This document shows, one piece after another, positions 4,350-61,689 of a DNA stretch of 64,000 nt (its first letter is position 1; each line of letters opens with the position of its first letter). The translations under genes were made by a program, and so were the position numbers. A model generated the notes under the pieces. The model did no database searches. It saw only the letters and a list, made by a program, of their open reading frames with translations, and was not told where the DNA came from. This stretch comes from Armatimonadota bacterium (GTDB taxonomy: Bacteria > Armatimonadota > UBA10988), in contig JACRKZ010000166.1 of NCBI GenBank assembly GCA_016235455.1, positions 845-64,844 of the forward strand, given 5' to 3'.

Positions 4350-4515
4350 GACGACCTTATACCAGATCGAGCGTGGCAGCGTGAGCCTTTGGTGGCATCG
4401 GCCGCCGGGCCGGTGGCCGCACCTGACCGCCACGCAAACGACCGGCCGGGACGCCGCGGCCATCATCGTCGGCGCGGCCGTTGACATTGGCCCGCCGGAT
4501 CGCTACCGTCTGCTC

Positions 4516-9075: not shown

Positions 9076-9220
9076 TCCTACTCCTTAGTGGCCCCGCGGA
9101 CGGCGCCGCCTGCGTCGCCCTGTAGCCTGGTCGCCCAAGAACGACCGATTCAATGACTTCGGTGCCATGGTAGCGGTTCCTCTCACAGACCGCAACCCGC
9201 GAACCTTACAGAAGTCGGTG

Positions 9221-33087: not shown

Positions 33088-33136
33088 GAGGGTGTCCTCA
33101 GACGAGAGTGTGGCAGAGCGCGGTGGCAGACGCAAG

Positions 33137-41343: not shown

Positions 41344-42467
41344 GGCCCGCGCTGGCGGTGGCGCATGCGACGCTGGTCGCCGCTTGGCGCGGTGGCCCAG
41401 CGCCGGCCATGGCCGGGCTGCTGGCGGCGCTGCTGCTGTGGCTGCCGAGCCAGGTCGGCCGTGACGACGTCGGGCTGTGGCAGATCACGTTGAGCGTGGC
41501 GCAAGCGTTGCTGCTGCTTGGCACCGGCTGGTTGGCGGTGGATAGCGTCGGCCGCGACTTGCGCGAGGGCCAGGCCGCCCTGCTGGCCACGCGCCCGCTG
41601 AGCCGCGGCGCCTGGTGGCTGGGCCGCTGGCTGGGCGTCGTGGCCGTGGCCTGGGTGCTGTTGGCAGGCGTCGTGATGCTGGTCCTGGCGCAGGCCCGCG
41701 GGCGGTGCCCACTGCCGCACACCGAGACGCGCGCGGCCATCGACCGCTCGCTCGTGCTGCAGCCCGACCAGCCCGTGACCGTGTCATTGCCCGGCGGGCC
41801 GGGCGAGTTGCGGCTGACCGTGCGCGCGCCCGAGCCGCTGAGCCGACCGGCACGCCTTGACCTTGCCGCCGCCAGCGCGCCTGACCGCGCCGTCGACGTT
41901 TGGCCCGACCGCCTCTACCGGCTGCCGTGGCCCGGCGGCGGGTCGATCACGCTGACCAATCGCGGCGCCGGGGCGCTGGCGGTGATGTCGCGCGACGATC
42001 TGCGGCTGCGCTGCGCCGCGGGCAACCCGTGGGCCAACCTGGGCCGCGTGGTCGTGCTGATGGCGCTGCAACTCGCCTTCATCGCGGCGCTGGGTGCGGC
42101 GGCGGCCAGTTGCCTGAGCCATCCGGTGGCGCTGTTCGCGGTGCTGGCCTGGCTGGTGGCGGCGGCGCATGCGCCGTTGCTGCCCGATGCGCCGATCGTG
42201 GCACCAGGCGAGCCGGGCCACCATGAAGCGGCTCCCTCGCCGCTGTGGCTGGTCACGCTCAACGGCGGTCGGCTGACCGGGCTGTGGGTGACCGACGCGC
42301 TGCACCACACCTGGCGGCTGGGCGACCTGGGGGATGGCCGGCTGGTGCCCGGCGGTGACCTTGTCGCGTCCTGCTGGCGGCTGGGGCTGGGCCAGACCGG
42401 CGCCGTGTTGCTCATCGGCGTGCTGCTCTGGCGGCGGCGCGAGTTCGGGCTGGAGGACCGGCCATGA
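41340..42467 (+). CDS. membrane protein with large extracytoplasmic loop (putative second permease component)
   Basis: N- and C-terminal TM clusters flanking a ~150-aa soluble segment. ATGA-coupled on both sides. Confidence 0.45.
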   Translation: MRPALAVAHATLVAAWRGGPAPAMAGLLAALLLWLPSQVGRDDVGLWQITLSVAQALLLLGTGWLAVDSVGRDLREGQAALLATRPLSRGAWWLGRWLGVVAVAWVLLAGVVMLVLAQARGRCPLPHTETRAAIDRSLVLQPDQPVTVSLPGGPGELRLTVRAPEPLSRPARLDLAAASAPDRAVDVWPDRLYRLPWPGGGSITLTNRGAGALAVMSRDDLRLRCAAGNPWANLGRVVVLMALQLAFIAALGAAAASCLSHPVALFAVLAWLVAAAHAPLLPDAPIVAPGEPGHHEAAPSPLWLVTLNGGRLTGLWVTDALHHTWRLGDLGDGRLVPGGDLVASCWRLGLGQTGAVLLIGVLLWRRREFGLEDRP

Positions 42468-43606
42468 GGCGTTGGCTGGTCATCATAGCCGCGTTGGCTG
42501 TCGCCGCGAGCCTGCGACCGGTGCCGCGGCCGCGACGGGCCATGCCCGACGCGCCGCCCGGCGTGTCGCTGGCGGCCACGGCGCTGGGCGGGTTCAACGG
42601 CGTTGCAGCCAGTTACGTGTGGCTCTACGCTTCACGCCGCGAGGAGGCCGGCCAGCCCTTTGAGTTGGTGCGCGCCGCGCGCTGGGTGTCGGCGTTGCAG
42701 CCCAACCTCGGCTCGCTCTACGACTTCCAGGCCTGGAACCTGGCCACCAACGTGGCGGACACCTTCGGCTCGCCGCCCGAGCGCTGGCCGTGGGTGGAGG
42801 CCGGTCTGAACCTGCTGTACGACGAGGGCCTGGCCCGGCGTGGCGACGACCCGCGGCTGCCCGGCGCTCTGGCCTCGCTGCTGCTGGGTCGCGTGTGTGG
42901 CGGCCAGGACGATGCGGCTGAGTACTTCCGCCAGGCCTTCGCGGCGCGCTGGACACCCATCGTCGGTCCACCACCGACGCGCTGGCCGGCGGTCGCCGGG
43001 TTGGAGCGCTGGCGCATGGAGGCGCGTTCGTGCGCCGAGATCGACAGCCGGTTCGGCCCGCTCGACTGGCGCACGGGTTGGGCGCATGCGTTGTACTGGG
43101 CGCGGCGCGGGGCGCTGGCTTCGCCTTCACGGCGGCAGTCGCGGCCGCTCTGGTCGTGGCAGATCGAAGCCCTGCGCGGCGCCTGCCTGGACGGTCGCAT
43201 CATCACCGCGCCCGGCCAGGGGGTGTTCGTCACGGTGCCCATGCCGGAACTCGCGGTCAAGGTGGAGGCGCTGTACGACGAGGCACTGGCGCGGCTGCCC
43301 CGCGACCAGGGCCTGCGCGCTGGTCGCCAGGCATGGCGCGACGAGGCGGCGCTGATGCTGGTCGCGTATGGCCTGTCGAGCGATGAGTCCGCCGCCGAGC
43401 GCACCGTGGCCGCACTCACCGACGGCGATGCCGGGATGGCGCAGTCCGTGGCCGACAGCTACGCACTCAGGGCGCTGCTCTGCGGCCGGTTGGGCGATGC
43501 CGCGGCGGCTCGTGGGCTGACTGGCATGGCACAGCGCGTGGCGCGGTCCGCGGGGCTGGACTGGTCGGCGGTGCAGCGCCGGGCTGGCGAGGCGCTCGGT
43601 CGTTAG
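42464..43606 (+). CDS. secreted alpha-helical hypothetical protein
   Basis: Signal 'MRRWLVIIAALAVAASLRP'. Last gene of the coupled block, followed by a terminator. Confidence 0.4.
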   Translation: MRRWLVIIAALAVAASLRPVPRPRRAMPDAPPGVSLAATALGGFNGVAASYVWLYASRREEAGQPFELVRAARWVSALQPNLGSLYDFQAWNLATNVADTFGSPPERWPWVEAGLNLLYDEGLARRGDDPRLPGALASLLLGRVCGGQDDAAEYFRQAFAARWTPIVGPPPTRWPAVAGLERWRMEARSCAEIDSRFGPLDWRTGWAHALYWARRGALASPSRRQSRPLWSWQIEALRGACLDGRIITAPGQGVFVTVPMPELAVKVEALYDEALARLPRDQGLRAGRQAWRDEAALMLVAYGLSSDESAAERTVAALTDGDAGMAQSVADSYALRALLCGRLGDAAAARGLTGMAQRVARSAGLDWSAVQRRAGEALGR

Positions 43607-46244: not shown

Positions 46245-47282
46245 CTAGACCTGCTTGAAGTGGACCTCGCTGACCTCACGCAGCTTCGCGGCGGCCTGTT
46301 CGGCCGTCACGTCGCGCTGGGCCTCCGCCAGCATCTCGTAGCCCACCATGAACTTCTTGACGGTGGCCGACCGCAGCAGCGGCGGGTAGAAGTGGGCGTG
46401 CAACTGCCAATGGCTCTGGTCGCCGGCGAGCGTCGGCGCGCCGTGCCAGCCCATGGAGTAGGGGAAGGTGCACTCGAACAGGTTGTCGTAGCGGGTGAGC
46501 ATGCGCTTGAGGATGTCGGCCAGTCCATCGCGCTCTGCCTGGTCCAGGTCCGGCAGCCGCAGCACATGGCGGCGCGGCACGAGCAGGACCTCATAGGGCC
46601 ACAAGGCCCACCAGGGCACCACCGCCACCCAGGTGTCGTTGGCGACGACGATGCGCTCGCCGCTCTCGGTCTCGGTGGCCAGGTAGTCGACCAGCAGTGG
46701 CAGGCCGTGCTCGGCGGCGTAGGCGCGCTGGCGGGCGTCCTCCTTGAGGATCTCGTTGGGCAGCGCCGAGCCGGCCCAGACCTGGCCGTGCGGATGCGGG
46801 TTGGAACAGCCCATCACCGCGCCCTTGTTCTCGAACACCTGCACCCACGGGTAGGTCGCGCCCAGTTCGGTGATCTGGTCAGCCCACAGGTCGACCACCG
46901 AGCGGATGGCCGGTAGTTCCATCTCGGGCAAGGTCAGGTCGTGCCGCGGCGAGAAGCAGATGACGCGGCAGGTGCCGCTCTCGGCCTCGGCGCGCAGCAG
47001 GCGATGCTCGGCGGCGCCGACGTCGGGCGAATCGGTCAGCAGCGCGGCGAAATCGTTGGTGAACACGAAGGTGGAGTCGTACTTGGGGTTGGTCAACCCG
47101 CCCGCGCGCTCATTGCCGGGACAGAGGTAGCAGCGGGGATCGTGTGCCAGCCGCTGCTCGACGGCGGGCTTCTCCACCTGGCCCTGCCAGGGGCGCTTGG
47201 TGCGGTGCGGCGAGACGAGGATCCAGTCGCCGGTCAACGCGTTCAGCCGGCGGTGCGGGTGTTCGGTCGGGTCAAACAGCAT
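46245..47282 (-). CDS. galT: galactose-1-phosphate uridylyltransferase (HIT-family, class I)
   Basis: '[34 protein letters not shown]' matches the E. coli GalT N-terminus. Zn/Fe ligands 'CYLCPGN'. Active site 'HPHGQ'. Confidence 0.9.
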
Positions 47283-47338
47283 GATCGAGCAGCCTCCCAG
47301 CAAGGCTGCCATGGTACCACGGACCCAGGGGTTTGTCC

Positions 47339-51400: not shown

Positions 51401-51649
51401 GCGCCGCGCGTGGGCATAGCCCGGCGCGAAGCCCTGCTCTGTCATGACTCGGGCCATCTCGGTCATCTTGGCCGTGTTCAGCGGCTCATCCCAAAACCAG
51501 AACATGAATGGCGCATAGGCCATGTCCGGGTTGGCGAAAGTCTTGGCGGCCTGGTCGAAGGTGACCTGAGGGCGCTGACCCCAGTTTGCGGGCTTGGGCT
51601 GGGCGACGGCCGCGGTGGCCACGGCCAGCGCGAAGAGCAGACGGAACAT
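48458..51649 (-). CDS. large (~1060 aa) secreted glycoside-hydrolase-like protein with C-terminal galactose-binding-like jelly roll (GH106/GH2-like architecture)
   Basis: ORF 48458..51742, start at 'MFRLLFALAVATAAVAQ'. C-terminal 'VWVNGQSVGDRLWGPYRFDVSKVLRPGRNTVRIRV'. Family assignment is tentative. Confidence 0.5.
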   Translation of the reverse strand: MFRLLFALAVATAAVAQPKPANWGQRPQVTFDQAAKTFANPDMAYAPFMFWFWDEPLNTAKMTEMARVMTEQGFAPGYAHARRSMVGTPDLPDAQWLGEPWFSAFSGALGQAEQAKTYLGYCDEYWWPSMQANGRVVKQHPELAATSLACETLDVRAGQTVKVPQSFYAVAARLAQPLGAAPLTARLGHWVWHPDRVTSEGTVWFATGFELPAGQTITAAAAQATADNAYKLYLDGREVGGGDVWMTPQSFDLTGKLTPGRHTLTVEARNLDGPAALNVGLAARLADGREIRALTDGTWRARLDKPAGWPRADLAAPGWVAVRDLGESTAAPYHLAATSEEQATAIIDAGTLKVIGDGAAFDWQAPADGDQRVYVFTQYHAPGVDGGGVNYIDERLAPAFTQIALEPYAKRYGDKLGRSIPGDFIDNEGDYGRGLAWSETLERHFAQRFGRDMRALMPLMIDRDTRGAEKRLRYEWFEAVSDCYAATFRAVTDWHEKRGMYTTAHFWEEGLQPQLNAVGDHLKMLRALTMPGQDCLGDKAIRVHDFKEAVSVAEFEGTRAMSEVLGAGGWGTFNPTFLKQALNAMTAWGVAHQIPHGVFAARKMDGNPWMPDWYSDSPMYPMMHHYADFARRSSYLNSVGHAVPDVLLYNPLESVWANANAGLLDKDLWSMPETSAAGRRINEINRVYAQAIDELAAGRIEFLVGDRHYVGQMTIRDGKLRRGDFAFSTVVLPPLDLITGAVAEKMLAFARAGGHVVALGELPTASAEHGGGDARLALVMAELRRQKTFHASAGSVKPLMAGEPAWLCSPVRIVSGTLPLLQAHRRIGGRDVFWLANNTTSVQRLELQFRGLHGGADVWNPEDGSRHSVVTMAAPAGARVALVLQPLEGLWLSLDPTVRQGRPETRPSPPDAELAKLSGPWTVRCVAADQPRLEHPQPVPADLLAGCVKPLEDWKAWGLARFSGRLDYTCEMDAPKVDGSVYLDLGRVAAAAQVWVNGQSVGDRLWGPYRFDVSKVLRPGRNTVRIRVANLINNSYGDLRESGLLGPVRLLKEPPAELWAESR

Positions 51650-51908
51650 GGCAGGCTCCCACGGCCGAGCCACAGGCCTCGGCGCGTCCCACATCGGTCG
51701 ATGCCACCGTGTTCGTCGCGCTGGCCGCCGCACCTCCGCCACGCGCAGGAGCCAGCCGCCGCGCCGCGAAGCATGGGGCGCCGCGCCGCGACAGCGGCCG
51801 GCGCCACAGGCGATGAGTCGGCGCCCAGCGAGGTAAGTAAGCGCTCATTCACCTGTTCTGCTACACTCGGCGGGCGGCCCGGTCACACTGGGTCCAGAGA
51901 ACGATGAC

Positions 51909-53951
51909 ATGAAGCATCCTGCCATCAAGCGTATCGCTATCGTGCTGCTCCTGGTCGGCGTCGGGTTGGTGGTCAACCGCGTGCGTCATCCGCGCGAGGA
52001 TCCCACGCTGGTCAAGGGCAGCGGCACGGTCGAAGCCACGGAGATTGGTGTGGCCTCGCAGGCCACGGGTCGCATCGACAAGCTGTTGGTGGCCGAAGGC
52101 GACGCCGTGACCGAGGGTCAGGTGCTGGCTCAGCTGAGCGCCGATGCGCTGAGCGCCGACCACGAGCGCACGGAGGCGGCGGCCTTCTCGGCGCGCATGA
52201 GGCTGGCCAACCTGGCGCGCGGCAGCCGCTCGGAGGAAGTCCGGGCCCGCGCCGCCGCGTTGTCGGAGGCGCTGGCCAACGTGCAGGGCGCGCGGCGACA
52301 GATGGCCAATGCGCGGGATGCCTACCAGCGCCCGCCCGACCTGCGGGCCGCTTACGACACGGCGCACACGCAGGTGCGGGCCAGCGGCGCGCAGCTCGAC
52401 CAGGCGCGAGCCCAGTTGGCCGAGGCCAAGGCCGGCGCGCGGCCCGAGGAGCTGAGCGCTACGCGCGCGGCGCGCGCCGCCGCAGGTTCGGCGGCCGTGG
52501 GTGCCGGCGCGGCGGTGGACCAGGCTGACGCTGCCCGGCGCGCGGCGGCCGCGCAGTTGGCCGAGGCCGACGCCGCGATCAAGGGCGCCCAGGCCGATCT
52601 GGCCCAAGCCCAGGAGATTCTGGCCCAGCGTAGCGCCGCCACGACGCAAGTCGCCGCGGCGACGTTGCAGCTGGAGAGCGCGCAGGCGGCGCAGGCGGCG
52701 GCGCAGGCGCGCCGCGACACCGTGGAGTCGCCGCCGCGACCCGACCGGCGCGACCAGGCCGAGCAGGCCCTGAGCCAGGCCCGCGCGGCGCAGGCGTTGG
52801 CTGAGGCCGAGGCCAAGCGCCAGCGCAACCTGTTCGAGCAAGGCGCGATCAGCCGGCGCATTCTGGACCAGGCCAGCACGACGCTGGACCAGGCCCGCGC
52901 CGCCACGAAGTCGGCCGAAGCCGGGCTGCGCGATCTCGATGCCGGTGCGCGCGACAGCGAACGCCGTGAGGCCAGCGCCTCGCTGACCGGCGCGCAGGCG
53001 GGCGTACGCGGCGCCGAGGCGGCCCTGGCCAACGCCAAGCACGAGCAGGCTATCGCCGTGGCCGCCGCGCAGCAGGCGGTCGAGCGCGCCAAGGCGACGC
53101 TGGCCGGGGCCAACGAACGCCGCGCGCAGGCGGTGGCCAACCAGGACCAGTCGGCCGACCGACTGCGCGGCTCACGCGCCACGGCCGAGCAGGCCAAGGC
53201 CCAGAGCGAGCAAAGCCAGGCCGCGCTGGACCTGGCGTTGGCCGGCACGCGCGCCGAGCGTCTGGCGCAGAGCAGCGCCGCCGTGCGCACCGCCGAGGCC
53301 CAGAGCGCCGGCGCCCAGGTGGCGTTGAGCAATGCCGAGCGGGCCTACCAGGACCGCTTCACCTATCGCGCCAACCTGCTGGCCGCGGAGCAGTCGGCCA
53401 GCGCCGCGGCGGCACGGGTCGACCAGGCCCAGGCGCAACTGGACCTGGCGCTCGCGGGCAACACCTCCGAGGTGATCGAAGCGGCGCGCGGTGAGCTGAA
53501 CCAGGCCACCGCCGCGGAGAAGACGGCCAAGGCCCGGCTGGACGACACGGTCATCCGCGCGCCGGCCACGGGCACGGTGAGCGAGCTGATCCTGCGCCAG
53601 GGCGAGGCCTGTACGCCGGGCTCCGTCGTGGTGCGCATGCTGGACCTGGCGCACTTGTGGGTGCGGGTCTATCTGCCGACGACGGCGTTCACCAAGGTCA
53701 AGCGCGGTCAGGACGTCGACGTGCTGGCGGACGCCTTCGCCAAGCCCGTGCGTGGCCAGGCCAGCCGCCGGTTCGCCGGCCGGGTGCTGACCGTCAGCGA
53801 CCAGGCCGAGTTCACGCCGAAGAACGCGCAGACCGTGGAGGAGCGGGTCAAGCAGGTGTTCTGGGTCAAGATCGATGTGGGCGACGGCCAAGGGTTGCTC
53901 AAGCCGGGCATTCCCGTGGACGTGCGGCTGCGCGTGGGTCAGGGCGGCTGA
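51909..53951 (+). CDS. HlyD/YbhG-family membrane-fusion (periplasmic adaptor) protein with ~480-residue Ala/Gln/Arg-rich coiled-coil hairpin
   Basis: N-terminal TM 'IAIVLLLVGVGLVV'. Repeats of 'L.AGxRxEE(V/L)' HlyD_D23-type units. C-terminal beta-barrel 'VIRAPATGTVSEL...VKIDV'. Confidence 0.8.
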   Translation: MKHPAIKRIAIVLLLVGVGLVVNRVRHPREDPTLVKGSGTVEATEIGVASQATGRIDKLLVAEGDAVTEGQVLAQLSADALSADHERTEAAAFSARMRLANLARGSRSEEVRARAAALSEALANVQGARRQMANARDAYQRPPDLRAAYDTAHTQVRASGAQLDQARAQLAEAKAGARPEELSATRAARAAAGSAAVGAGAAVDQADAARRAAAAQLAEADAAIKGAQADLAQAQEILAQRSAATTQVAAATLQLESAQAAQAAAQARRDTVESPPRPDRRDQAEQALSQARAAQALAEAEAKRQRNLFEQGAISRRILDQASTTLDQARAATKSAEAGLRDLDAGARDSERREASASLTGAQAGVRGAEAALANAKHEQAIAVAAAQQAVERAKATLAGANERRAQAVANQDQSADRLRGSRATAEQAKAQSEQSQAALDLALAGTRAERLAQSSAAVRTAEAQSAGAQVALSNAERAYQDRFTYRANLLAAEQSASAAAARVDQAQAQLDLALAGNTSEVIEAARGELNQATAAEKTAKARLDDTVIRAPATGTVSELILRQGEACTPGSVVVRMLDLAHLWVRVYLPTTAFTKVKRGQDVDVLADAFAKPVRGQASRRFAGRVLTVSDQAEFTPKNAQTVEERVKQVFWVKIDVGDGQGLLKPGIPVDVRLRVGQGG

Positions 53952-54874
53952 TGCAGGCCGTCAGCGTCACCGGGCTCAGTCGCCACTACGGCACCACGCG
54001 GGCCGTGGACGACGTGAGCTTCGAGGTGGCCAGCGGCGAGATCTTCGGCATCGTCGGCCCTGACGGCGCCGGCAAGACCACGCTCATGCGGCTGCTGGCG
54101 GGCATCGTCACGCCCACGTCCGGCGGCGCCATGGTCGCCGGGTGCGACGTGGTGGCCGATCCCGAGGCCGTCAAGCAGCGCATCGGCTACCTGTCCCAGG
54201 TCTTCTCGCTGTACCGTGATCTGACGATCGGAGAGAACATCGACTTCGTGGCCGACCTCTACAGCGAGGACCTGGTCCGCGCGGGCGAAGCCAAGGCCCG
54301 CATGTTGGCCATGACCGGCCTGGCGCCGTTCGTCGACCGCCAGGCGGGCCGGTTGTCGGGCGGCATGAAACAGAAGCTGGGTCTGATGTGCGCGCTGATT
54401 CACCGGCCCACGGTTCTGCTGCTGGATGAGCCGACGACGGGTGTCGACCCGCTCTCACGGCGCGACTTCTGGCGCATTCTGGCCGACCTGCCGAGCCAGG
54501 GCGTGACCATTGTGCTCAGCTCGCCGTACATGGACGAAGCGTCACGCTGCCATCGGCTGGCGCTCATGGACCATGGTCGCGTGCTGGCGGTGGGCAGCGC
54601 CGCCGAGCTGGCCGCGCGGGTCAGCGGCCAGATGGTCGAGGTGGTCACACCCGACCCGCGTGGCGCGCTGCGCGTGCTGGAGGGCCTGCCGGGCCTGCTC
54701 AGCGCCACGCCGTTTGGCGATGCGCTGCATGTGCGGCTGGACGGCGACGACGCCGTGGCGCGGGTGAGCGCGGTGTTGGCCGGCGCCGGCGTGGTGTTCA
54801 GTGAAGCCCGCCCGGCCGAGGCCAGCCTGGAAGACGCCTTCATCGACCTCGTGGGCCGGGGGGAGACGGCATGA
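53951..54874 (+). CDS. ABC transporter ATP-binding protein (YbhF N-half-like)
   Basis: ATG overlaps the HlyD stop (TGATG). 'GPDGAGKTT', 'LSGGMKQKLGLMCAL', 'LLLDEPTTGVD'. Confidence 0.85.
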   Translation: MQAVSVTGLSRHYGTTRAVDDVSFEVASGEIFGIVGPDGAGKTTLMRLLAGIVTPTSGGAMVAGCDVVADPEAVKQRIGYLSQVFSLYRDLTIGENIDFVADLYSEDLVRAGEAKARMLAMTGLAPFVDRQAGRLSGGMKQKLGLMCALIHRPTVLLLDEPTTGVDPLSRRDFWRILADLPSQGVTIVLSSPYMDEASRCHRLALMDHGRVLAVGSAAELAARVSGQMVEVVTPDPRGALRVLEGLPGLLSATPFGDALHVRLDGDDAVARVSAVLAGAGVVFSEARPAEASLEDAFIDLVGRGETA

Positions 54875-55812
54875 GCGAGCCAGCCCCGGCCATCGTGGTG
54901 CGCGACCTGGTCAAGCGCTTCGGCGCCTTCGCCGCGGTGGACCACGTCTCGCTGAGCGTCGCGCGCGGCGAGGTATTCGGCTTCCTCGGGCCCAACGGCT
55001 GCGGCAAGTCGACCACCATCCGCATGATCTGCGGGCTGCTGGGGCCGACCAGCGGCAGCATCGAGGTGGCCGGCCTGGATGTGCGCACCCATGCCGAGCA
55101 GATCCGCGCGCGGGTGGGGTACGTGGCGCAGTTCTTCAACCTGTACCGCGACCTGACGGTCTATGAGAACCTGACCTTCTACGGCGGGGTCTACGGTGTG
55201 CCGCGCGCCGAGCTGCGGTCGCGCGTCGAGCACTGGTGTGAGCGGCTAGACCTGAGCCGATACGGACGGGTGCTGTCGGGCGAGCTGTCGACCGGCGTGC
55301 AGCGCAGCCTCGCGCTGGCCGCGGCGGTGCTGCACGAGCCGGCGGTGCTGCTGCTCGACGAGCCCACCAGCGGCGTTGACCCCATTGCGCGGCGTGCCTT
55401 CTTCGATGTCATCGGCGAACTGGCCGACGGCGGCACCAGCATCCTGGTCACCACGCACGTCATGGACGAAGCGGACCGCTGCGGGCGGCTGGCGCTGATG
55501 GATCGCGGCAAGCTGGTGGCCGAAGGCACGCCCAGTGAGATCCGCGCCATGGGCGGCACCGACATCTGGCAGGTGTCGGCCGACCCGCCCAGCCGCGCGC
55601 TGACGCTGGCCGAGCAGCATCCGGGCGTCGACGCGCCGGCGCTGTTTGGCACGCGGCTGCAGTTCAGGGTGAGCGACGGCACCACCGCGGTTGCCGTGGC
55701 GCAGTGGCTGCGCGACCAGGGCGTGACCTGCGATGAGCCGCGGCCGGTGCGCGCCACCATCGAGCACGCCTTCCTGCAACTGCTGCGCCGGGACGACGGA
55801 GACAACGAATGA
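54871..55812 (+). CDS. ABC transporter ATP-binding protein (YbhF C-half-like)
   Basis: 'GPNGCGKST', '[15 protein letters not shown]', '[11 protein letters not shown]'. ATGA-coupled. Confidence 0.85.
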
Positions 55813-56939
55813 GGCGCACCCGCGCCATCGCGCGCAAGGAGTGGATCCACATCCTGCGGGACAAGCGCAGCCTGGCGGCGGTGCTGACGCTGCCCGTCGT
55901 GCTGGTGCTGCTCTATGGGTACGCGGTCAACTTCGACCTCAACGCGCTGTCGTTTGCCCTGGTGGACGACGACCACAGCGCCGCCTCGCGCCACTTGGCC
56001 GAGAACCTGAGCGGGGTGCGGCCGTTCGTCTTCAAGGGCACGCTGGCCAACGCCGCCGAGGCCGATAGCGTTTTCCAGCGCGGCATCGCACGCGTGGTGG
56101 TGGTCGTGCCGGCGGGCTTCGAGCGGCTGCTCGACAGCGGCCGGCCGTCGCCGGTGCAGGTGCTCGTCGATGGCTCCGAAGGCACCATCGCCACCATTGC
56201 CCAGACCTACACGGTCGGCGCGATCAGTACGCTCGGCCGCACACTGACCAAGGCACAGGCCCAAGGTCGCGGCATCTCCAAGCGGTTGCTCGAGCCGGCC
56301 ATCGATGTGCGCGTGCGCGTGCTGTACAACCCCGACCTGCTCAGCCGCATGTTCCTCGTGCCGGGCCTCATCGGCATCATCCTGATGATGCTCGCGGCAC
56401 TGCTCACCTCGGGCATCATCGTGCGCGAGCGGGAGAGCGGCACGTTTGAGCTGCTGGCGGCCAGCCCCATCGGGCCGATGGAACTGCTGGTGGGCAAGAT
56501 GCTGCCCTACCTGATCATCGGCGCGGCCGATGTGGTGGTGGCGGTGGGCATGGGCTGGGCGGTGTTCGGTGTGGAGCCCAAGGGCAGCCTGCTGCTCCTC
56601 TTCGCACTGTCGCTGGTCTACGTGCTGGCCAGCTCGGCCATTGGGCTGTTCTTCTCGTGCGTGGCGCGCAGCCAGCAGACGGCGATGATGATGGCCTTCG
56701 TGGCCACCGTCATCCCGACCATGATCCTCTCGGGCTTCGCCTTCCCGGTGCGCAACATCCCGCTGGTGCTGCAGGGCCTGTCGCAGATGCTGCCGGCCAC
56801 GCACTACATCGCGATCGCCCGCGGCATCATCCTCAAAGGCATCGGCCTGGGACCCATCTGGTGGCATGGCCTGGCCCTGGCGCTGCTGACCGTGTTCTGG
56901 ATGCGGCTGGCGCTGCGCAAGTTCAGCAAGACGCTCTGA
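55809..56939 (+). CDS. ABC-2-type exporter permease (YbhS/YbhR-like)
   Basis: '[22 protein letters not shown]' N-terminus. 6 TM. Large first periplasmic loop. Confidence 0.8.
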   Translation: MRRTRAIARKEWIHILRDKRSLAAVLTLPVVLVLLYGYAVNFDLNALSFALVDDDHSAASRHLAENLSGVRPFVFKGTLANAAEADSVFQRGIARVVVVVPAGFERLLDSGRPSPVQVLVDGSEGTIATIAQTYTVGAISTLGRTLTKAQAQGRGISKRLLEPAIDVRVRVLYNPDLLSRMFLVPGLIGIILMMLAALLTSGIIVRERESGTFELLAASPIGPMELLVGKMLPYLIIGAADVVVAVGMGWAVFGVEPKGSLLLLFALSLVYVLASSAIGLFFSCVARSQQTAMMMAFVATVIPTMILSGFAFPVRNIPLVLQGLSQMLPATHYIAIARGIILKGIGLGPIWWHGLALALLTVFWMRLALRKFSKTL

Positions 56940-56952
56940 GGACGGAGACACC

Positions 56953-58071
56953 ATGCGGTTGCGCTATCTGCTGGTCAAGGAGCTGCTCCAGATGCGGCGT
57001 AACCCGGCCATGCTGCGCATGGCTGTGTTCATGCCCATCATGCAGACGCTGCTGCTGTCCTTCGCGGCCAACATGGACGTGACCAACGTGCCGCTGACCA
57101 TCTGGGACGCCGACCGCAGCCCGCAGAGCCGGGCGCTGGTGCAGATGGTCGGCTCCTCCAACGCCTTTGTCCTGAAGGGCTACCGCATGTCGCCCGAGGA
57201 GCTGGAGCACGACCTGGACTCGGCGCGGGCCTCGCTGTGTCTGGTCATCCCCGCCGGATTCGCGCGCGACGTGGAGCGTGGCGAGGCGACGCTGCAGGTG
57301 CTGGTCGACGGCACGGAATCCACGACCACGACCGTGGCCGCGGCCTACATCGCGCAGATGGCGGGCGACTTTGGCGCGCAGGTGCAGCGCAAGCTCGTGG
57401 CGCGGCGTGGCTTGCACCTCAACCTGGGCCAGATCACGCCCGTGCCGCGCGTGCTCTACAACCCCGACGCGCGCACGCTGTGGTTCATGGCGCCGGCCAT
57501 CATGGCGCTCGTGCTGACCACGCTCATGCAGAACATCACCGCCCTGTCCATCGCTCGTGAGCGCGAACTGGGCACGCTGGAGCAGTTGGTGATGACGCCG
57601 GTGCGGCCCGCGGAGATCCTGCTGGGCAAGCTGGTGCCCGTGGGGGTGATTGGTCTGTTCGACGCCGGCCTGGTCAGTGTCATCGTGGTGCATGCGCTGC
57701 ATGTGCCGTTTCGCGGCAGCGTGGCGCTGCTGGCCCTGGCCACGATCATCTTCTTGTTCGCCGTGCTCGGGTTGGGGTTGCTCGTGTCCACCGTGTCGCA
57801 CAATCAGCAGCAGGCGCAGCTGACCAACTTCTTCCTGTCGTACCCCTCGATGCTGCTGTCGGGCTTCATCTTCCCCGTGTGGAACCTGCCGGCCCCGCTG
57901 CAGCCGGTCAGTCGGCTGGTGCCGATGACGCATTTCCTGGAGATCACGCGCGGCGTGTTTCTACGGGGCTCCGACGCCTCCGCGCTGGCCGGCCATCTGG
58001 CGTGGATGGCCGGCCTGGCGACTGCATTCTTCGTCGTGGGCGCCTTGCGCTTCCACAAGCGACTCGACTGA
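56953..58071 (+). CDS. ABC-2-type exporter permease (YbhS/YbhR-like), second copy
   Basis: 'MRLRYLLVKELLQMRRNPAMLRM'. Same architecture as the preceding permease. Confidence 0.8.
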   Translation: MRLRYLLVKELLQMRRNPAMLRMAVFMPIMQTLLLSFAANMDVTNVPLTIWDADRSPQSRALVQMVGSSNAFVLKGYRMSPEELEHDLDSARASLCLVIPAGFARDVERGEATLQVLVDGTESTTTTVAAAYIAQMAGDFGAQVQRKLVARRGLHLNLGQITPVPRVLYNPDARTLWFMAPAIMALVLTTLMQNITALSIARERELGTLEQLVMTPVRPAEILLGKLVPVGVIGLFDAGLVSVIVVHALHVPFRGSVALLALATIIFLFAVLGLGLLVSTVSHNQQQAQLTNFFLSYPSMLLSGFIFPVWNLPAPLQPVSRLVPMTHFLEITRGVFLRGSDASALAGHLAWMAGLATAFFVVGALRFHKRLD

Positions 58072-58140
58072 GCCCTCACCCGCGCCGCGCTGGCCGGCCG
58101 CTCGATCGCTCGGCGGGCCGGGCAGAACGCACACGTTGGC

Positions 58141-58599
58141 TCAATCGGCCGTGGGCGGGGTGGGGGCCGTGTCGCCAACCGGGCCGAGCTTGCGCAGGTA
58201 GACCCAGCCGCGCTGTGGATAGGTGGTGCGGCCGGTCCGCGCACCGATCCAATCGGCTACCTTCTGCGAGGTCCACTTGCCGCCGCCGGGCGGCGCCTGG
58301 TGCAGTGCCGCAGCCAGTTCGGCCTGTTGCGCGGGTGACAGCATGGGCGTGGCGCCGGGGTTGGCGTGGCGCCGGTCGGTCAGACAGCCGGGGCCGTTCT
58401 CGTTGTACTCATGCACCAAACGGCGGACCCAAGGGATCGAATACCCGGTCGTCTCGGCTACTTTGCGCGTGGACGAGCCGCTCGACATCAGAAAGATGAC
58501 CTGATAGCGGAGACGCTCGACGGGATCTCTGCTGGCACGGAATCTGCTTTCCAGTTCGTCTGGCGTCAAATGCGGCTTCACAATCGGACGTCGCGGCAT
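58141..58599 (-). CDS. orphan IS630-family transposase N-terminal HTH/winged-helix domain (no DDE catalytic ORF follows); likely insertion-sequence remnant
   Basis: ORF 58141..58698, start at 'MPRRPIVKPHLTPDELESRFRA'. 'STRKVAETTGYSIPWVRRLVHEYNENG' HTH typical of IS630/Tc1 OrfA. The adjacent region holds no transposase core. Confidence 0.55.
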   Translation of the reverse strand: MPRRPIVKPHLTPDELESRFRASRDPVERLRYQVIFLMSSGSSTRKVAETTGYSIPWVRRLVHEYNENGPGCLTDRRHANPGATPMLSPAQQAELAAALHQAPPGGGKWTSQKVADWIGARTGRTTYPQRGWVYLRKLGPVGDTAPTPPTAD

Positions 58600-58737
58600 G
58601 TGGGATCCTCCTACCCAGGCCGACAGGGGCACGCTACGGTCCCCGCAGGTCGGTATTATTGCCCACGCACCGCGGATTACGGGATACGTTGAATTCACAT
58701 AGGCGACATGTTCGGCCAGGAGCCGACTCGTCGGCGT

Positions 58738-61689
58738 TTAGGTGGTGGGTTGCCACCAAAGCGACTCCCAGTAGCGTCGCTCAACTGCGTATGGATCAAT
58801 GGGCTCGCCATCGGTTCGTCCGGGCGCCAGGATGCCATAGCGTTGCATCTCGCGAACCCAGGCTGCACGGGGCTGGAAACCCGGCATGTCGAACCGCCGG
58901 ATGGTGTTGAGCTGAGTGGAGGCCGCCTGCACCATGGCCAGGATGGCCTGGTAGTCGGTGTCGTCGGTGCTGGGCAGTACCGCCTGGCCGCAGCGTTGCC
59001 AGCCGCCCGCCGCCTTGGCCAGCGGCGCCAGCAGCAGCGCCGACTGGGCCGGTTCGGTGAGGTCGTAGAGCAAGTGGCGCGCGAAGCGACGGCGCGGGTC
59101 GTTGGGGCCCATGTCCTCCCACGGGGGGCCGGTGATCTCGTCGGTGGCCGATTGGGGCAAGGCCTTGGCGCCGGTGTGGCAGCTGTTGCAGCGGCGCCCG
59201 AGCGCTGCCATGCCGGCCTTCGTGACGGGCTGCTGCAGGTCGGCGCGGTCCAGGTTGTTCTGGGCGTAGCCGCCGATCATGCCGCAACCCAGCGCGGCGT
59301 AAGTGCCTGGGTGCGGTGCGCCGACCTCTATCCAGAGGCGCACGGTACGTCGTTCCTGGTCGGTCAGGCGCACGCCGTGGTGGGCCTCGGTGAGCTTGGC
59401 CATGAGCGGGCTGGCGCTGCTGCCGAGCTTGCGCGGCGGGTAGTTGCTGATCGGCCGGTTGCGTCCGTCGGCCACCTGACTGCGCGCGGTCAGCGCGAAG
59501 TAGCTGAGGGTGAACAGCGGGCCGCGATGGTTGATCAGGTTGACGTCGCCGTCACGGCGCTGCGGGTTGTGGCAACTCACGCAGTGGCGGTCCCAGATGG
59601 GTTGGATGTCGCGCGGGTAGTCCAGCACGTCGGGCACGTCGCTGATCGGCGTGATGGCCGACGGCGCGCGCATCACGGCCGCGGGCATGGCCGTCGCCGT
59701 CCGTGGCGGTGCCTTGGTGCGGTGCTCGTGGCAGCCGACGCAGCCCAACGTCTCGCCCGGCTGCACGGTGGCGAAGCTCTGCATGCGCTTGACGGCCAGA
59801 TCGTCCTGGTCGAGTGCGACGAAGATCAGGCTGCGTAGCGCCGGCGCCTCGAAGTAGGCGGAGCCGTCGGGCTCGACGGGCACGGTGCCCAGCACGCGTT
59901 CCAGGGTGAACGTGCCGCCGTAGCTCAACGGCTCCATGCCGCCGGTGAAGTTGACCGGCTTGGGCAGGCTTTCGAGCACCAGCAGCTTCTTGATCTCGCC
60001 GCGCGTCACGCCCTCCATGTTGCGGCCCAGGTGCACGTCCTGGAGCATGAAGCGGCCGGTAGTGCGGGCCAGTTCGGCGCGCGCGGGAATGACCCGCTCG
60101 CGCCCGCGGACGATCACCGGACGCGGCTCGTTGAGCCAGTAGCCTGCCTGCTGGTCGGCCGCGGGCAAGGCGAACAACTCGGCGGTGCGGCCGCGCTCGT
60201 CGCACAGCATCAGCGAACTGCCGCGCGCGGCCATGATGGTGTCTTCGCCAAACGCCCACGGGTCGCGGAAGTCATCGCCGCGGGTCAGCGCGCGGGCCGA
60301 GCGGTTCTGGTCGGGCCCGGCCTTGGGGTCGATGATGCCGATGCGACCCTCGTGTTCGGTCTTGCCGTGGCCGGGCGAGAAGCTGGCCACGATCTTGTGG
60401 CTGCCGGGGATGGGTTTGGCGTCGATGAACACGTCGCCGGCGCGCTGGTTGCCGAACCACACCTCCTGCACCGTGCCGTCGGGGTAGGCCGACCACAGGT
60501 GGTGGTAGTGCACCTGGCTGCGATCGACATACTCCCAGCGCGTGTAGAGAATGCGGCCGTCGGGCATGACCCAGGGCGTGTTGTCGTGCTCGTTGTTGCT
60601 CGATATCGGCCGCAGATTCGTGCCGTCGGCATCGCAGCGGTAGAGAATCGCCACCTGCGTCAGCCAGCAGTTCACCCACCGCTTGCAGCGCGTGGAGACG
60701 AACACGATGCCGCCGTCGGGCAGGTAGGCGGGTTCGATATCGTCCCAGTCGCCGGTGGTGATCGGGCGCACGGAACGATCGGCCAACGTCATCTCGTACA
60801 GGTTGTAGTGGTCGCTGGTGCCGCGGCGCCAGCTGAACAGCATCTTCTGGCCGTCGTAGCTGACCTGCGGGTCGCGCAGGCCGCCCTGCGGGTCGTCCAG
60901 CAGCGTCTCCAGCGCCTTGGTGCGCAGATTGAGCCGGCACAGCCGCCCGCCAGGTCGGTAGAGCTTGGCCGCGCTGTCGGCCGCGTAGTACGAGAAGTTG
61001 GCGTACCAGTGCTCGCCGACAGGCTTGCGTAGTGCAAAGACCACCGAGTCCACGGGCGCCATGGTGCCCGTCAGCGCGCGCTCCACCAGATCCCCCGAGC
61101 CGCCGTTGACGGCCGGCGCCGCCTGCTCGGCGCTCAGCAGCAGGTAGTCGTAGATGATCCAACTGCCGTCGTCCATCGTTACGGTCAGTTCGTTCGTCCC
61201 GGCCTTGGCCCCGCCGGCCGCCACGGGCACGGCCAGGTCGCTAGGCTCGCTGAGTAGGAATGGATCGAAGGCCAGTTCGGTGCCGTTCTTCGCCGGCAGG
61301 CGCTGCTCGAGCAGCTTGTTGCCGTTGATCGCGATGCGGATCAGGCTCGGTTCCCAGCTGGCCAGGTAGCCCAGGTGCAGCCACAGCGGTCTGGTCGGCG
61401 CGTCCTTCAAATTGAAGCGCAGCGTGAAGGTCTGCGGCTTCCCGCCGGCCCAGCTATCGTGCGTGCTGGGGTGGATGTAGGGCCAATCGGTCAGCTTGCT
61501 CTGGCCGAGCGTGACCACCACCGGCTGCCGGTACGTTTCCGCGTAGCCGGTCCAGGTGCGGTCACACAGCCCAAACTCCGCGCACGACCCGTCGGGCGTG
61601 CCCAGTTGCATGAGCGGCGCCTCCGCGGCCACCAGCCGCCCAGCGATCAGCACGACCAGCCACCAACGCAGTGATCTCAACCAATTCAT
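58738..61689 (-). CDS. paralog 3 of PD40-propeller / tri-haem c-type cytochrome protein with a different N-terminal beta-sandwich domain (three CxxCH: GCVGCHE, CVSCHN, CNSCHT; PSCyt1-like 'RLWIEVGAP')
   Basis: Signal 'MNWLRSLRWWLVVLIAGRLVAA'. The propeller and cytochrome part is colinear with the other two paralogs ('RWEYVDR', 'GETLGCVGCHEHRT', 'HCVSCHNP'). Confidence 0.7.
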   Translation of the reverse strand: MNWLRSLRWWLVVLIAGRLVAAEAPLMQLGTPDGSCAEFGLCDRTWTGYAETYRQPVVVTLGQSKLTDWPYIHPSTHDSWAGGKPQTFTLRFNLKDAPTRPLWLHLGYLASWEPSLIRIAINGNKLLEQRLPAKNGTELAFDPFLLSEPSDLAVPVAAGGAKAGTNELTVTMDDGSWIIYDYLLLSAEQAAPAVNGGSGDLVERALTGTMAPVDSVVFALRKPVGEHWYANFSYYAADSAAKLYRPGGRLCRLNLRTKALETLLDDPQGGLRDPQVSYDGQKMLFSWRRGTSDHYNLYEMTLADRSVRPITTGDWDDIEPAYLPDGGIVFVSTRCKRWVNCWLTQVAILYRCDADGTNLRPISSNNEHDNTPWVMPDGRILYTRWEYVDRSQVHYHHLWSAYPDGTVQEVWFGNQRAGDVFIDAKPIPGSHKIVASFSPGHGKTEHEGRIGIIDPKAGPDQNRSARALTRGDDFRDPWAFGEDTIMAARGSSLMLCDERGRTAELFALPAADQQAGYWLNEPRPVIVRGRERVIPARAELARTTGRFMLQDVHLGRNMEGVTRGEIKKLLVLESLPKPVNFTGGMEPLSYGGTFTLERVLGTVPVEPDGSAYFEAPALRSLIFVALDQDDLAVKRMQSFATVQPGETLGCVGCHEHRTKAPPRTATAMPAAVMRAPSAITPISDVPDVLDYPRDIQPIWDRHCVSCHNPQRRDGDVNLINHRGPLFTLSYFALTARSQVADGRNRPISNYPPRKLGSSASPLMAKLTEAHHGVRLTDQERRTVRLWIEVGAPHPGTYAALGCGMIGGYAQNNLDRADLQQPVTKAGMAALGRRCNSCHTGAKALPQSATDEITGPPWEDMGPNDPRRRFARHLLYDLTEPAQSALLLAPLAKAAGGWQRCGQAVLPSTDDTDYQAILAMVQAASTQLNTIRRFDMPGFQPRAAWVREMQRYGILAPGRTDGEPIDPYAVERRYWESLWWQPTT

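Follow-up and report, generated by a model that had tools for sequence, protein, structure and literature searches.

How far can the periplasmic adaptor of an efflux pump be lengthened, and what does its length say about the envelope that it crosses? A tripartite pump has to fit the distance between two membranes exactly, which makes the lengths of its parts a physical constraint on the envelope. The question is raised by a 680-aa adaptor encoded in the 64-kb stretch of Armatimonadota DNA analysed here (the window), in which a helical hairpin of 467-468 residues (AlphaFold secondary structure) is inserted in the lipoyl domain. The explanation that we favour, and which we hold to be rather probable, is that this protein is the adaptor of a YbhGFSR-type ABC-2 efflux pump, in which the hairpins form a tube of about 35 nm that docks onto TolC across an unusually wide periplasm. 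The transport function of the pump is ordinary and the type of system is already known; the length of the hairpin is the new part.

Identity of the adaptor and organisation of the operon

The five genes and the parts of the adaptor are listed below.

51909..53951, + strand: YbhG-type periplasmic adaptor (membrane fusion protein), 680 aa, ATG start
51921..51986, + strand: N-terminal transmembrane anchor (aa 5-26; AlphaFold helix 5-26, hydrophobic sequence AIKRIAIVLLLVGVGLVVNRV)
52008..52136, + strand: N-terminal half of the split lipoyl domain, with a barrel strand (aa 34-76; Biotin_lipoyl match at aa 44-79, strands 34-76)
52143..52838, + strand: ascending hairpin arm (aa 79-310; AlphaFold helical segments of about 25, 67, 95 and 33 residues)
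52818..52853, + strand: hairpin tip with the RLS motif R304-x3-L308-x6-S315 (RQRNLFEQGAIS), at the exact centre of the insert 79-545
52854..53543, + strand: descending hairpin arm (aa 316-545; AlphaFold helical segments of about 30, 96, 67 and 26 residues)
53544..53948, + strand: C-terminal lipoyl half and beta-barrel (aa 546-680; HlyD_D23/HlyD_3 matches at aa 491-634, strands 548-675)
53951..54874, + strand: ATPase 1, counterpart of the N-terminal half of YbhF (ABC_tran 3e-30; 39% identity to YbhF residues 6-305)
54871..55812, + strand: ATPase 2, counterpart of the C-terminal half of YbhF (ABC_tran 1.7e-32; 47% identity to YbhF residues 330-553)
55809..56939, + strand: YbhS-like ABC-2 permease (ABC2_membrane_3 2.1e-47; best E. 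coli match YbhS, 31% identity, 189 bits)
56953..58071, + strand: YbhR-like ABC-2 permease (ABC2_membrane_3 2.6e-43; best E. coli match YbhR, 34% identity, 205 bits)

An earlier note on this DNA had proposed a HlyD/YbhG-type adaptor in a YbhGFSR-like ABC-2 exporter, and this assignment is borne out by Pfam (HlyD_D23, HlyD_3 and Biotin_lipoyl for the adaptor), by NCBIfam and by the gene-by-gene matches to E. coli. The adaptor, which is rich in alanine (A 24.7%, R 10%, Q 8.4%, L 8.4%), displays the hallmarks of the HlyD superfamily: an N-terminal anchor, a split lipoyl domain with an inserted alpha-hairpin, and a beta-barrel/adaptor fold. Its AlphaFold2 model (mean pLDDT 82) consists of a transmembrane helix (aa 5-26), beta strands (34-76), helices from 79 to 545 and again beta strands (548-675), with the helical insert 79-545 lying between the beta segments. 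The GSGTVEA block of the N-terminal lipoyl half is invariant in the family alignment. The C-terminal part has no membrane-proximal domain and carries the EFTPKN and RVKQVFWVK motifs common to YbhG relatives. Judged by profile scores, the adaptor is a YbhG-like relative and not a YbhG equivalog, because PRK03598 (YbhG), while being the top NCBIfam model, scores 204 bits in 4 stretches against a cut-off of 393. In addition, PF25881 (HH_YBHG) is precomputed on the closest homologues.

The operon follows the gene order ybhG-F-S-R of the CecR-regulated E. coli system, each window protein matching its positional counterpart best (31-47% identity). It differs from it in that YbhF is one protein while the window has two genes. 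Indeed, as the earlier note had described, the ATPase is encoded by two genes, which are followed by two ABC-2 permeases (ABC_tran and ABC2_membrane_3 matches); the two ATPase genes are separate and overlap by ATGA, and their nucleotide-binding domains (NBDs) are not fused as in YbhF. ATPase 1 has a canonical signature (LSGGMKQK) and no H-loop histidine (SSPYMDEA), whereas ATPase 2 has a canonical H-loop (TTHVMDEA) and a degenerate signature (LSTGVQR). The same asymmetry of ATP sites is found in E. coli YbhF, with NBD1 lacking the H-loop His and NBD2 a degenerate signature. In NCBIfam, the window ATPases and permeases hit best the model of RbbA, from the E. coli YhiI-RbbA(YhiH)-YhhJ system, at successive positions (NBD1 90-234, NBD2 264-487, permeases 540-902). 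RbbA is however a single fused NBD-NBD-permease protein, while the window proteins are products of separate genes and score 211-265 bits each; identity with the RbbA equivalog (NF033858, cut-off 1050) was rejected on these scores.

Of the junctions, all described earlier as translationally coupled, the first three are overlaps (TGATG, ATGA and ATGA, in this order); the last is no overlap but a 13-nt spacer containing GGAG. The five-gene order (adaptor, two NBDs, two permeases) is kept in 13 Armatimonadota loci. In relatives, TetR regulators are encoded ahead of the operon, the place that cecR has in E. coli; the window differs from E. coli in having no TetR gene immediately before the adaptor. 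A promoter and terminator scan of positions 51600-58400 returned no more than expected by chance. The exporter probably handles small amphipathic or xenobiotic molecules, by analogy with what was proposed for E. coli YbhFSR, the only source of data on drug or cation efflux (PMC7190983).

Architecture of the hairpin

The earlier estimate of a coiled coil of about 480 residues agrees well with the helical insert of the AlphaFold model. Helix breaks are found at aa 104-107, 174-178 and 274-277 of the ascending arm and at aa 346-348, 445-447 and 516-519 of the descending arm. Counted from the tip, they lie at 34, 133 and 204 residues (descending) against 37, 137 and 207 (ascending), that is, at matched heights. 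All six coincide with homologous motifs that are kept across the family (RGSRSEE 104, AGARPEE 175, PPRPDRRD 274, AGARDSE 345, AGTRAER 445 and AGNTSEV 516). Thus, of the five or more AGxRxEE repeats noted earlier, the repetition itself is real, with six motifs, while the strict pattern matches at 2 sites only in the adaptor (aa 175 and 445); the break repeat is better described by the looser GxRxEE[IV] or PRPxxRE. The modules delimited as U2, U3, D2 and D3 are mutually homologous, with an hhalign probability of 94-97% in 4/6 pairs and of 74-77% for U2-D3 and U3-D3; reversed controls had scores of about 10.

The central tip carries an RLS motif. Its R304 and L308 never vary within the clade; at its third position, S, A and T all occur. 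This motif was defined as the TolC-binding tip of adaptors (PMC3391258), and the tip of the adaptor is, on its sequence, a predicted TolC-docking motif. With paired GxRxEE[IV] breaks and RLS at the central tip, the hairpin is of the YbhG type.

As the earlier note had read from the sequence, the helices are heptad-regular and not disordered low-complexity sequence. An a/d register is present in each of the 11 predicted helices (z = 2.2-4.2 against shuffles), the fraction of LIVMF being 0.30-0.51 at a/d positions vs 0.02-0.17 elsewhere. Over aa 80-545, the family profile has a 7/3 harmonic at z = 6.7; Fourier analysis of the hydrophobicity of the adaptor as a single sequence gave no significant 3.5-residue peak (z ~0). 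The arm segments match partner-wise (25/67/95/33 vs 26/67/96/30) and not neighbour-wise. These partner-wise segments, the equal heights of the breaks, the central RLS, the paired indels and quantised lengths described below, and the heptad register in all 11 helices argue for a single antiparallel hairpin. By calibration on EmrA, in which 168 residues measure 127 A (PMC4158417), i.e. 1.51 A per residue, pairing of the two arms would give one antiparallel coiled coil of about 35 nm.

Hairpin length among relatives

The hairpin of E. coli YbhG has 127 residues against 468 here. In a sample picked without regard to the hairpin, the median is 141 residues and lengths like that of the adaptor occur in 6/103 proteins. 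Among the about 280 relatives measured, 468 residues tie for the longest, and the length is thus as exceptional as the earlier note had stated. In the literature, we found no report of adaptor hairpins this long. Matches of 820-940 aa from Chloroflexota, considered as longer hairpins, were rejected: each consists of two adaptors fused in tandem and has a pair of lipoyl halves and a pair of barrels.

Insert lengths are quantised across relatives (127, 269, 412, 440, 468), with breaks every 71 residues. Each of the steps from 127 to 269 and from 269 to 412 adds one 71-residue GxRxEE module per arm; beyond 412, the hairpin gains 28 and 56 residues via paired 14-residue indels. Indels in homologues are likewise paired, a loss of 14 or 28 residues from the up arm going together with one of 14 or 28 from the down arm. 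These comparisons show that the hairpin is the ancestral 127-residue YbhG hairpin extended by two storeys, each a helical module of about 71 residues per arm, and that its third storey is longer by a further 28 residues per arm. This paired and quantised growth shows neatly how nature can lengthen an antiparallel coiled coil and keep its register, a principle that could help in designing trans-envelope machines of matched length.

Every operon whose hairpin has 412-468 residues is from Armatimonadota. In this phylum, operons of the same type have hairpins of about 216, 269, 321, 335, 412, 440 and 468 residues, and metagenome-assembled genomes (MAGs) labelled Fimbriimonadaceae have either the 269 or the 440 type. 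The 13 Armatimonadota species-representative genomes contributed one locus each. A search aimed at the coexistence of different hairpin lengths in one genome, carried out on all retrieved loci, found no second adaptor on the same contig in those of Armatimonadota.

Comparison with solved and modelled adaptors

The adaptor has the same parts as E. coli YbhG: a TM anchor, a lipoyl domain split by a hairpin that GxRxEE motifs interrupt and that has RLS at its centre, and a beta-barrel, with no membrane-proximal domain. It differs from YbhG by its six breaks instead of 2 (G104, G175) and by the position of its RLS, at 304-315 instead of R133/L137/S144. The best PDB matches, both in sequence and in fold, are EmrA proteins of A. 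aeolicus and E. coli (PDB 4TKO, 8ZAL, 8ZAR). EmrA is also TM-anchored, also lacks the membrane-proximal domain, and has a long hairpin that is straight despite a paired heptad interruption. The A. aeolicus EmrA hairpin (168 residues, 127 A) was termed 'exceptionally long', and in the model of its authors the EmrA hexamer is a tube, docked to TolC and sealing the periplasm (PMC4158417). The hairpin described here is 2.8 times longer, which makes it nearly three times the longest solved, and is built of repeated modules; moreover, the partner transporter of EmrA is of the MFS type (EmrAB-TolC) and that of the adaptor of the ABC-2 type. MacA, HlyD and AcrA, which have an RLS or RLT tip, differ by hairpins only 47-115 A long, and MacA and AcrA are further set apart by a membrane-proximal domain and by partner transporters with large periplasmic domains.

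A proposed trans-envelope assembly

We propose that six copies of the adaptor would form a helical tube atop a heterodimer of the YbhS- and YbhR-like permeases, by analogy with MacA, EmrA and HlyD; the hexameric state is assumed from MacA and EmrA. The pump would be driven by an ATPase heterodimer, in which one ATP site is of the consensus type and the other degenerate, and the RLS tip would dock onto a normal-sized TolC-family exit duct encoded elsewhere in the genome. No TolC/OEP gene is present among all called genes of the 64-kb window, nor is an OEP gene found beside the other 468-type gene (P0001). TolC-family (OEP) genes of about 450 aa do lie directly upstream, on the same strand, of the 412-type adaptors of four loci (L002, L003, L005 and L007; E = 1e-37 to 1e-41), and one lies directly upstream of a 418-aa Armatimonadota adaptor (L085). 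In L005, for instance, the OEP gene is at 8505-9893 and the adaptor gene at 9821-11740. The TolC tunnel is about 10 nm long. Normal-sized TolC-family genes next to the 412-type sister adaptors therefore point to a tripartite pump that would span roughly 45-50 nm, the sum of the hairpin, of an estimated 5-6 nm for the lipoyl and barrel domains and of the TolC tunnel. This would be about twice the E. coli periplasm, and the length of the hairpin may then report an unusually wide periplasm in the lineage. Combined with a normal-sized TolC, the roughly 35-nm hairpin would exceed every such conduit described so far.

This assembly supposes a straight hairpin, a geometry that we infer from secondary structure, symmetry and paired indels. 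The adaptor could be long in sequence and not in reach, with a flexible hairpin or one that bends or folds back at its three paired breaks, an ordinary periplasm, and modules that are near-neutral duplications. The breaks do contain Gly or Pro, are paired at three heights and have a low pLDDT (56-66), the hairpin of CusB is known to fold into a short bundle (PMC4446572), and operons of this one type differ greatly in hairpin length inside a single phylum; we nevertheless regard this reading as unlikely. We give still less weight to an adaptor working without TolC, in which the hexameric tube alone would cross a thick wall or periplasm and reach or penetrate the outer layer, as proposed for Spr0693 or YknX of Gram-positives. 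The absence of an OEP gene from the window and from the surroundings of P0001 speaks for it, as do the hairpin-bearing adaptors that monoderms possess (PMC4446572) and the presence of the Spr0693 structure among the fold matches. Against it, OEP genes adjoin sister adaptors in five Armatimonadota loci, the TolC-docking motif is kept at the hairpin tip, and Armatimonadetes are reported as diderms with OmpM tethers.

The earlier note had instead related the length to PVC bacteria (Planctomycetes, Verrucomicrobia and allies) and their enlarged periplasm, and had called for a comparison of lengths between PVC and other phyla. High G+C and a context rich in glycoside hydrolases are what favours such an adaptation, and both are non-specific. 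This reading is highly improbable: the window comes from an Armatimonadota MAG, the close relatives of the operon are from Armatimonadota throughout, and the hairpins of PVC homologues in this subfamily have only 113 (Verrucomicrobiota), 127 (Lentisphaerae and Kiritimatiellota) or 179-181 residues (Planctomycetota). The origin of the window follows from a neighbouring gene, for GalT, whose product is 100% identical to the NCBI protein MBI5835277.1 of an 'Armatimonadetes bacterium' MAG. In the taxonomic sense, the long forms lie outside PVC, although they are rare overall. As for a non-functional sequence, whether low-complexity sequence of Ala, Gln and Arg, a spurious frame in GC-rich DNA or an assembly error, it can be suspected from long shadow ORFs on the opposite strand (51861-53042 and 52352-53332) and from the absence of the exact adaptor sequence from a collection of 15 billion proteins. 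We rejected this idea, to which we grant practically no chance. Indeed, GC3 in the adaptor frame is 0.89, orthologues 48-57% identical with the same architecture occur in at least nine independent MAGs, the gene is translationally coupled to that of the ATPase, and the AlphaFold model is confident and the heptads ordered. In addition, tandem and direct repeat searches of the DNA found no recent repeats, and the length is therefore not the product of a recent duplication or misassembly.

Hairpin length as a possible ruler of the periplasm

If the efflux-pump reading with a straight hairpin is followed further, the length of the adaptor hairpin might serve as a genome-readable ruler of periplasm width, graduated in storeys of one 71-residue GxRxEE module per arm (about 10.5 nm) and in paired two-heptad steps (about 2 nm), the 412-468 forms indicating a periplasm of about 45-50 nm bridged by a 35-nm nanotube on an ordinary TolC. 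We put this forward tentatively, as an idea that may well turn out wrong. If different hairpin lengths coexisted in one cell, the strict ruler model would fail. In the literature, we found no measurement of the periplasm width of Armatimonadota. A straight hairpin would predict, for a phylum of diderm Terrabacteria about which little is known, a periplasm of unusual width, and would offer a simple sequence-based proxy for the envelope dimensions of uncultured bacteria, while a folded-back one would be a new adaptor architecture.

A conceptual likeness exists with the OmpM/SlpA and Omp-alpha tethers of diderm Terrabacteria, in which coiled-coil length also fits the dimensions of the periplasm. 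These belong to an unrelated family and are trimeric parallel coiled coils acting as structural tethers and not as transport conduits. Armatimonadetes are diderm Terrabacteria with OmpM/SlpA-type tethers and carry OmpM homologues, and in diderm Terrabacteria the length of the coiled-coil tether tracks periplasm width (bioRxiv 10.1101/2021.05.31.446380; PMC9388160). The tethers measure 28 nm for SlpA and a predicted 45 nm for Omp-alpha (PMC9388160).

An operon homologous to E. coli ybhGFSR

The adaptor gene is a genuine open reading frame of 680 aa with a GC3 of 0.89 in its frame; opposite-strand ORFs across the region were read as shadows of this Ala-codon-rich frame. It is followed by four genes with Pfam matches. 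Each entry ends with the best match and % identity obtained when the proteins were compared directly with those of E. coli K-12 cecR-ybhGFSR:

51909-53951, +, adaptor, with Pfam Biotin_lipoyl (aa 44-79) and HlyD_D23/HlyD_3 (aa 491-634); YbhG, 31% over 247 residues (aa 428-674)
53951-54874, +, ABC ATPase 1, directly 3′ of the adaptor; YbhF N-terminal half, 39%
54871-55812, +, ABC ATPase 2; YbhF C-terminal half, 47%
55809-56939, +, ABC-2 permease 1; YbhS, 31%
56953-58071, +, ABC-2 permease 2; YbhR, 34%

Neighbouring genes overlap at the first three junctions (TGATG, ATGA and ATGA), and a 13-nt spacer with GGAG separates the two permease genes. The top NCBIfam model for the adaptor is PRK03598 (YbhG), at 204 bits under a cut-off of 393. 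Judged by these protein-by-protein best matches, the system is a YbhGFSR homologue, in which YbhF, a single protein in E. coli, is encoded by two genes.

The H-loop histidine is missing from ATPase 1 (SSPYMDEA), and the signature of ATPase 2 is degenerate (LSTGVQR). Both defects fall in one composite ATP site, leaving one degenerate and one consensus site. The same asymmetry is kept in ten Armatimonadota loci (L001-L013 range) and in E. coli YbhF (locus L086; motifs STSY and LPLGFKQR), and is thus ancestral to the family. As cecR precedes ybhG in E. coli, a TetR gene lies 5′ of the adaptor in the related loci L083/L084, L085 and L087; the window has none directly before its adaptor. In E. coli, tolerance to tetracycline, cefoperazone and chloramphenicol as well as transport of Na+/Li+ have been associated with YbhFSR, which probably acts with TolC (PMC7190983).

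The earlier note had described a YbhGFSR-like exporter with a two-gene ATPase, which the 31-47% matches bear out, and had suggested a link to Planctomycetes or their PVC allies, which is wrong: the window belongs to Armatimonadota and PVC hairpins of this subfamily are ordinary. A planctomycete origin of the window is ruled out by the closest operon loci, which are all (13/13) Armatimonadota MAGs whose ATPases share 44-69% identity with those of the window, and by the galactose-1-phosphate uridylyltransferase GalT (46245-47312, −), identical (100%) to NCBI MBI5835277.1 from ‘Armatimonadetes bacterium’. The exact adaptor sequence (window 51909-53948) was not found in a 15-billion-protein collection that does contain this GalT; in the deposited annotation the adaptor gene may have a different start or be marked as a pseudogene.

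Predicted layout of the adaptor

With the query adaptor aligned to nine homologues as input, AlphaFold2 predicts these elements (mean pLDDT 82):

aa 5-26, TM helix
aa 34-76, N-terminal beta strands
aa 79-310, up-arm helices, with breaks at aa 104-107, 174-178 and 274-277
aa 311-315, turn at the hairpin tip
aa 316-545, down-arm helices, with breaks at aa 346-348, 445-447 and 516-519
aa 548-675, C-terminal beta strands

Top Foldseek matches are adaptors (EmrA 4TKO, 8ZAL and 8ZAR, and MacA); like EmrA, the protein lacks a membrane-proximal domain. All six breaks coincide with a conserved GxRxEE[IV] motif, the third up-arm break being a PRPDxRE variant. Since they lie at near-equal distances from the turn (up arm: 37, 137 and 207 residues; down arm: 34, 133 and 204), the breaks of both arms stand at matched heights, and segment lengths pair partner-wise (25/67/95/33 versus 26/67/96/30) rather than neighbour-wise.

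The exact centre of the helical insert that splits the lipoyl domain is occupied by R304-x3-L308-x6-S315. Throughout the clade its R and L do not vary, and its last residue is S, A or T. In MacA, AcrA and MexA the RLS motif forms the tip that binds TolC, and HlyD has a related RLT (PMC3391258); by this match, R304/L308/S315 is an RLS motif and a putative TolC-docking tip. The beta-barrel carries a seven-residue loop insertion, FAKPVRG (aa 610-616, window 53736-53756), unique among the query's ten closest relatives and of low local pLDDT.

A coiled coil of exceptional length

The earlier note had proposed an exceptionally long coiled coil, and both parts of this claim hold. A single-sequence Fourier test on the adaptor gave no significant heptad signal; in the family profile, the 7/3 heptad harmonic reaches z = 6.7 and is coherent over aa 80-545. 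When the best a/d register was found for each of the 11 predicted helices, LIVMF residues made up 0.30-0.51 of a/d positions versus 0.02-0.17 elsewhere, polar residues were depleted at a/d, and per-helix z-scores against best-of-seven-register shuffles were 2.2-4.2. With a heptad register in the family profile and in every helix, the region is a coiled coil and not a disordered or low-complexity stretch.

Lengths were surveyed by searching 1.84 billion cluster representatives with the C-terminal 152 residues alone, which kept the hairpin from influencing the ranking. Among the best 150 of 6,153 matches, 103 were complete single-unit adaptors, with a median insert of 141 residues and a mode of 127; six reached at least 400, the maximum being 468. 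The query ties with its homologue P0001 for the longest hairpin among ~280 relatives measured; more distant matches may include longer ones. The 168-residue, 127 Å hairpin of A. aeolicus EmrA was called exceptionally long by its authors, whose yardstick was the 47-67 Å of MexA, AcrA, ZneB and MacA (PMC4158417). At the EmrA rise per residue, the 467-468 residues of the query would extend over ~35 nm.

Proteins of 821-940 aa, abundant among the matches, were rejected as longer hairpins: each has two lipoyl halves and two beta-barrels and is thus a tandem-fused double adaptor. Such proteins, annotated as HlyD-family, number 38 (including P0010, P0015, P0020, P0021, P0024, P0041 and P0048), and those with a label are from Chloroflexota or Anaerolineae; at L048 (2876-5536) the two units are adjacent ORFs with a single stop codon between them. 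Leptolinea MAGs (L071, 8811-9440; L072, 9737-10366) encode YbhG-like adaptors with ~6 residues between the lipoyl halves, essentially hairpin-less and BesA-like.

Modular growth of the hairpin

Inserts were measured with HMMs built from the alignment of the query and its homologues P0001-P0009.

Hairpin insert length (residues) in YbhG-type adaptors
468: query, P0001
440: MAGs labelled Fimbriimonadaceae
412: MAGs labelled Armatimonadia
269, 321, 335: other five-gene operons of this type in Armatimonadota
~216: P0064 (Armatimonadota), by eye from the sequence rather than by HMM
179-181: Planctomycetota
127: Lentisphaerae, Kiritimatiellota, E. coli YbhG
113: Verrucomicrobiota
103: most other phyla

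The 127-residue form is broken at insert positions 27 and 98, and the 269-residue form at 27, 98, 169 and 240; in the 412-residue form a motif search placed the breaks at 27, 98, 240, 312 and 383, the remaining one (~169) being a PRPxxRE variant. The hairpin thus lengthens in steps of one 71-residue module on each arm (127 + 142n), and the 440 and 468 forms have 14 or 28 extra residues per arm inside the third module. Indels come in pairs when the query and P0001-P0009 are aligned: where 14 residues are absent from the third up-segment, 14 are absent from the third down-segment, and sequences without 28 residues on one arm also lack 28 on the other.

The query's four long modules (U2 and U3 of the up arm, D2 and D3 of the down arm) are homologous in hhalign profile-profile comparisons, with probabilities of 74-77% for U2-D3 and U3-D3 and of 94-97% for the other four of the six pairs, and scores of 31-60 versus ~10 for reversed controls. 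No DNA-level repeat was found, so the module duplications are old. Intermediate hairpins of 179-193 residues (L034, L052 and L061 from Planctomycetota; L014 from Clostridium ganghwense) use a shorter module of ~26-33 residues, likewise GxRxEE-initiated; module insertion thus appears to be a general way in which the YbhG-type family alters hairpin length.

Outer-membrane partner and envelope

No gene for a TolC-family outer-membrane factor (Pfam OEP) was found in the 64-kb window. Clustering the flanking ORFs of the Armatimonadota loci returned one conserved neighbour, an ORF of ~450 aa that immediately precedes the adaptor, in the same orientation, in L002, L003, L005 and L007; it matches Pfam OEP with two repeats (E = 1e-37 to 1e-41) and has no insertions. 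L085 has the order TetR, OEP (444 aa), adaptor, NBD, NBD, permease (NBD, ATPase). Because insertion-free OEP genes adjoin the relatives' adaptors, the long-hairpin adaptors of the clade probably pair with normal-sized TolC-family ducts.

What is observed is the adaptor's domain make-up, its modular hairpin with a central RLS motif, the content of the operon and the OEP genes adjoining adaptors of relatives; from these we infer a hexameric 12-helix tube, ~35 nm long, that would sit on a YbhS/YbhR-like heterodimer and dock tip-to-tip on a TolC-type trimer. The lipoyl and barrel rings would contribute ~5-6 nm by our own estimate, and the TolC tunnel measures ~10 nm; together with the tube, the pump would span ~45-50 nm. 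EmrAB-TolC was modelled at 22.5 nm (PMC4158417).

Armatimonadetes belong to the diderm Terrabacteria and have OmpM/SlpA-type tethers (bioRxiv 10.1101/2021.05.31.446380; PMC9388160). As diderm Terrabacteria can have a very broad periplasm, reaching 121 nm in D. radiodurans, and the length of their coiled-coil tethers matches envelope spacing (PMC9388160), a wide periplasm in the adaptor's lineage is plausible but unproven. However, the same operon type in Armatimonadota spans hairpins of 216 to 468 residues; each of 13 species-representative genomes yielded a single locus, under scan patterns that would miss more divergent types. Ordinary in its transport function, the system has a hairpin of extreme architecture and length, whose implication for the envelope is testable.

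Other features of the window

4102-7683, +, HZS_alpha (hydrazine synthase alpha-like) middle-domain paralogue
30319-33510, −, HZS_alpha middle-domain paralogue
39617-43606, +, second ABC system (ABC_tran ATPase at 40351-41343)
58141-58698, −, 185-aa ORF with HTH_32, HTH_29 and HTH_23 domains, directly downstream of the operon
58738-61689, −, HZS_alpha middle-domain paralogue

The 185-aa ORF resembles the N-terminal part of an IS630-type transposase and looks like a transposase remnant. In the second ABC system, the 293-aa protein 5′ of the ATPase and the 375- and 380-aa proteins 3′ of it have no Pfam match; the latter two may be divergent permeases. The three HZS_alpha paralogues (983-1193 aa) each also have DUF7402, a CBM-like domain or cytochrome-c-like motifs, and a similar gene lies near a related operon (L081, 2298-5969). 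Finally, the region 1746-35590 is dense in glycoside hydrolases (GH5, GH106-like, alpha-1,3-glucanase, arabinofuranosidase and fucosidase-like) and also contains GFO/IDH/MocA oxidoreductases, a gene set consistent with a polysaccharide-degrading lifestyle.
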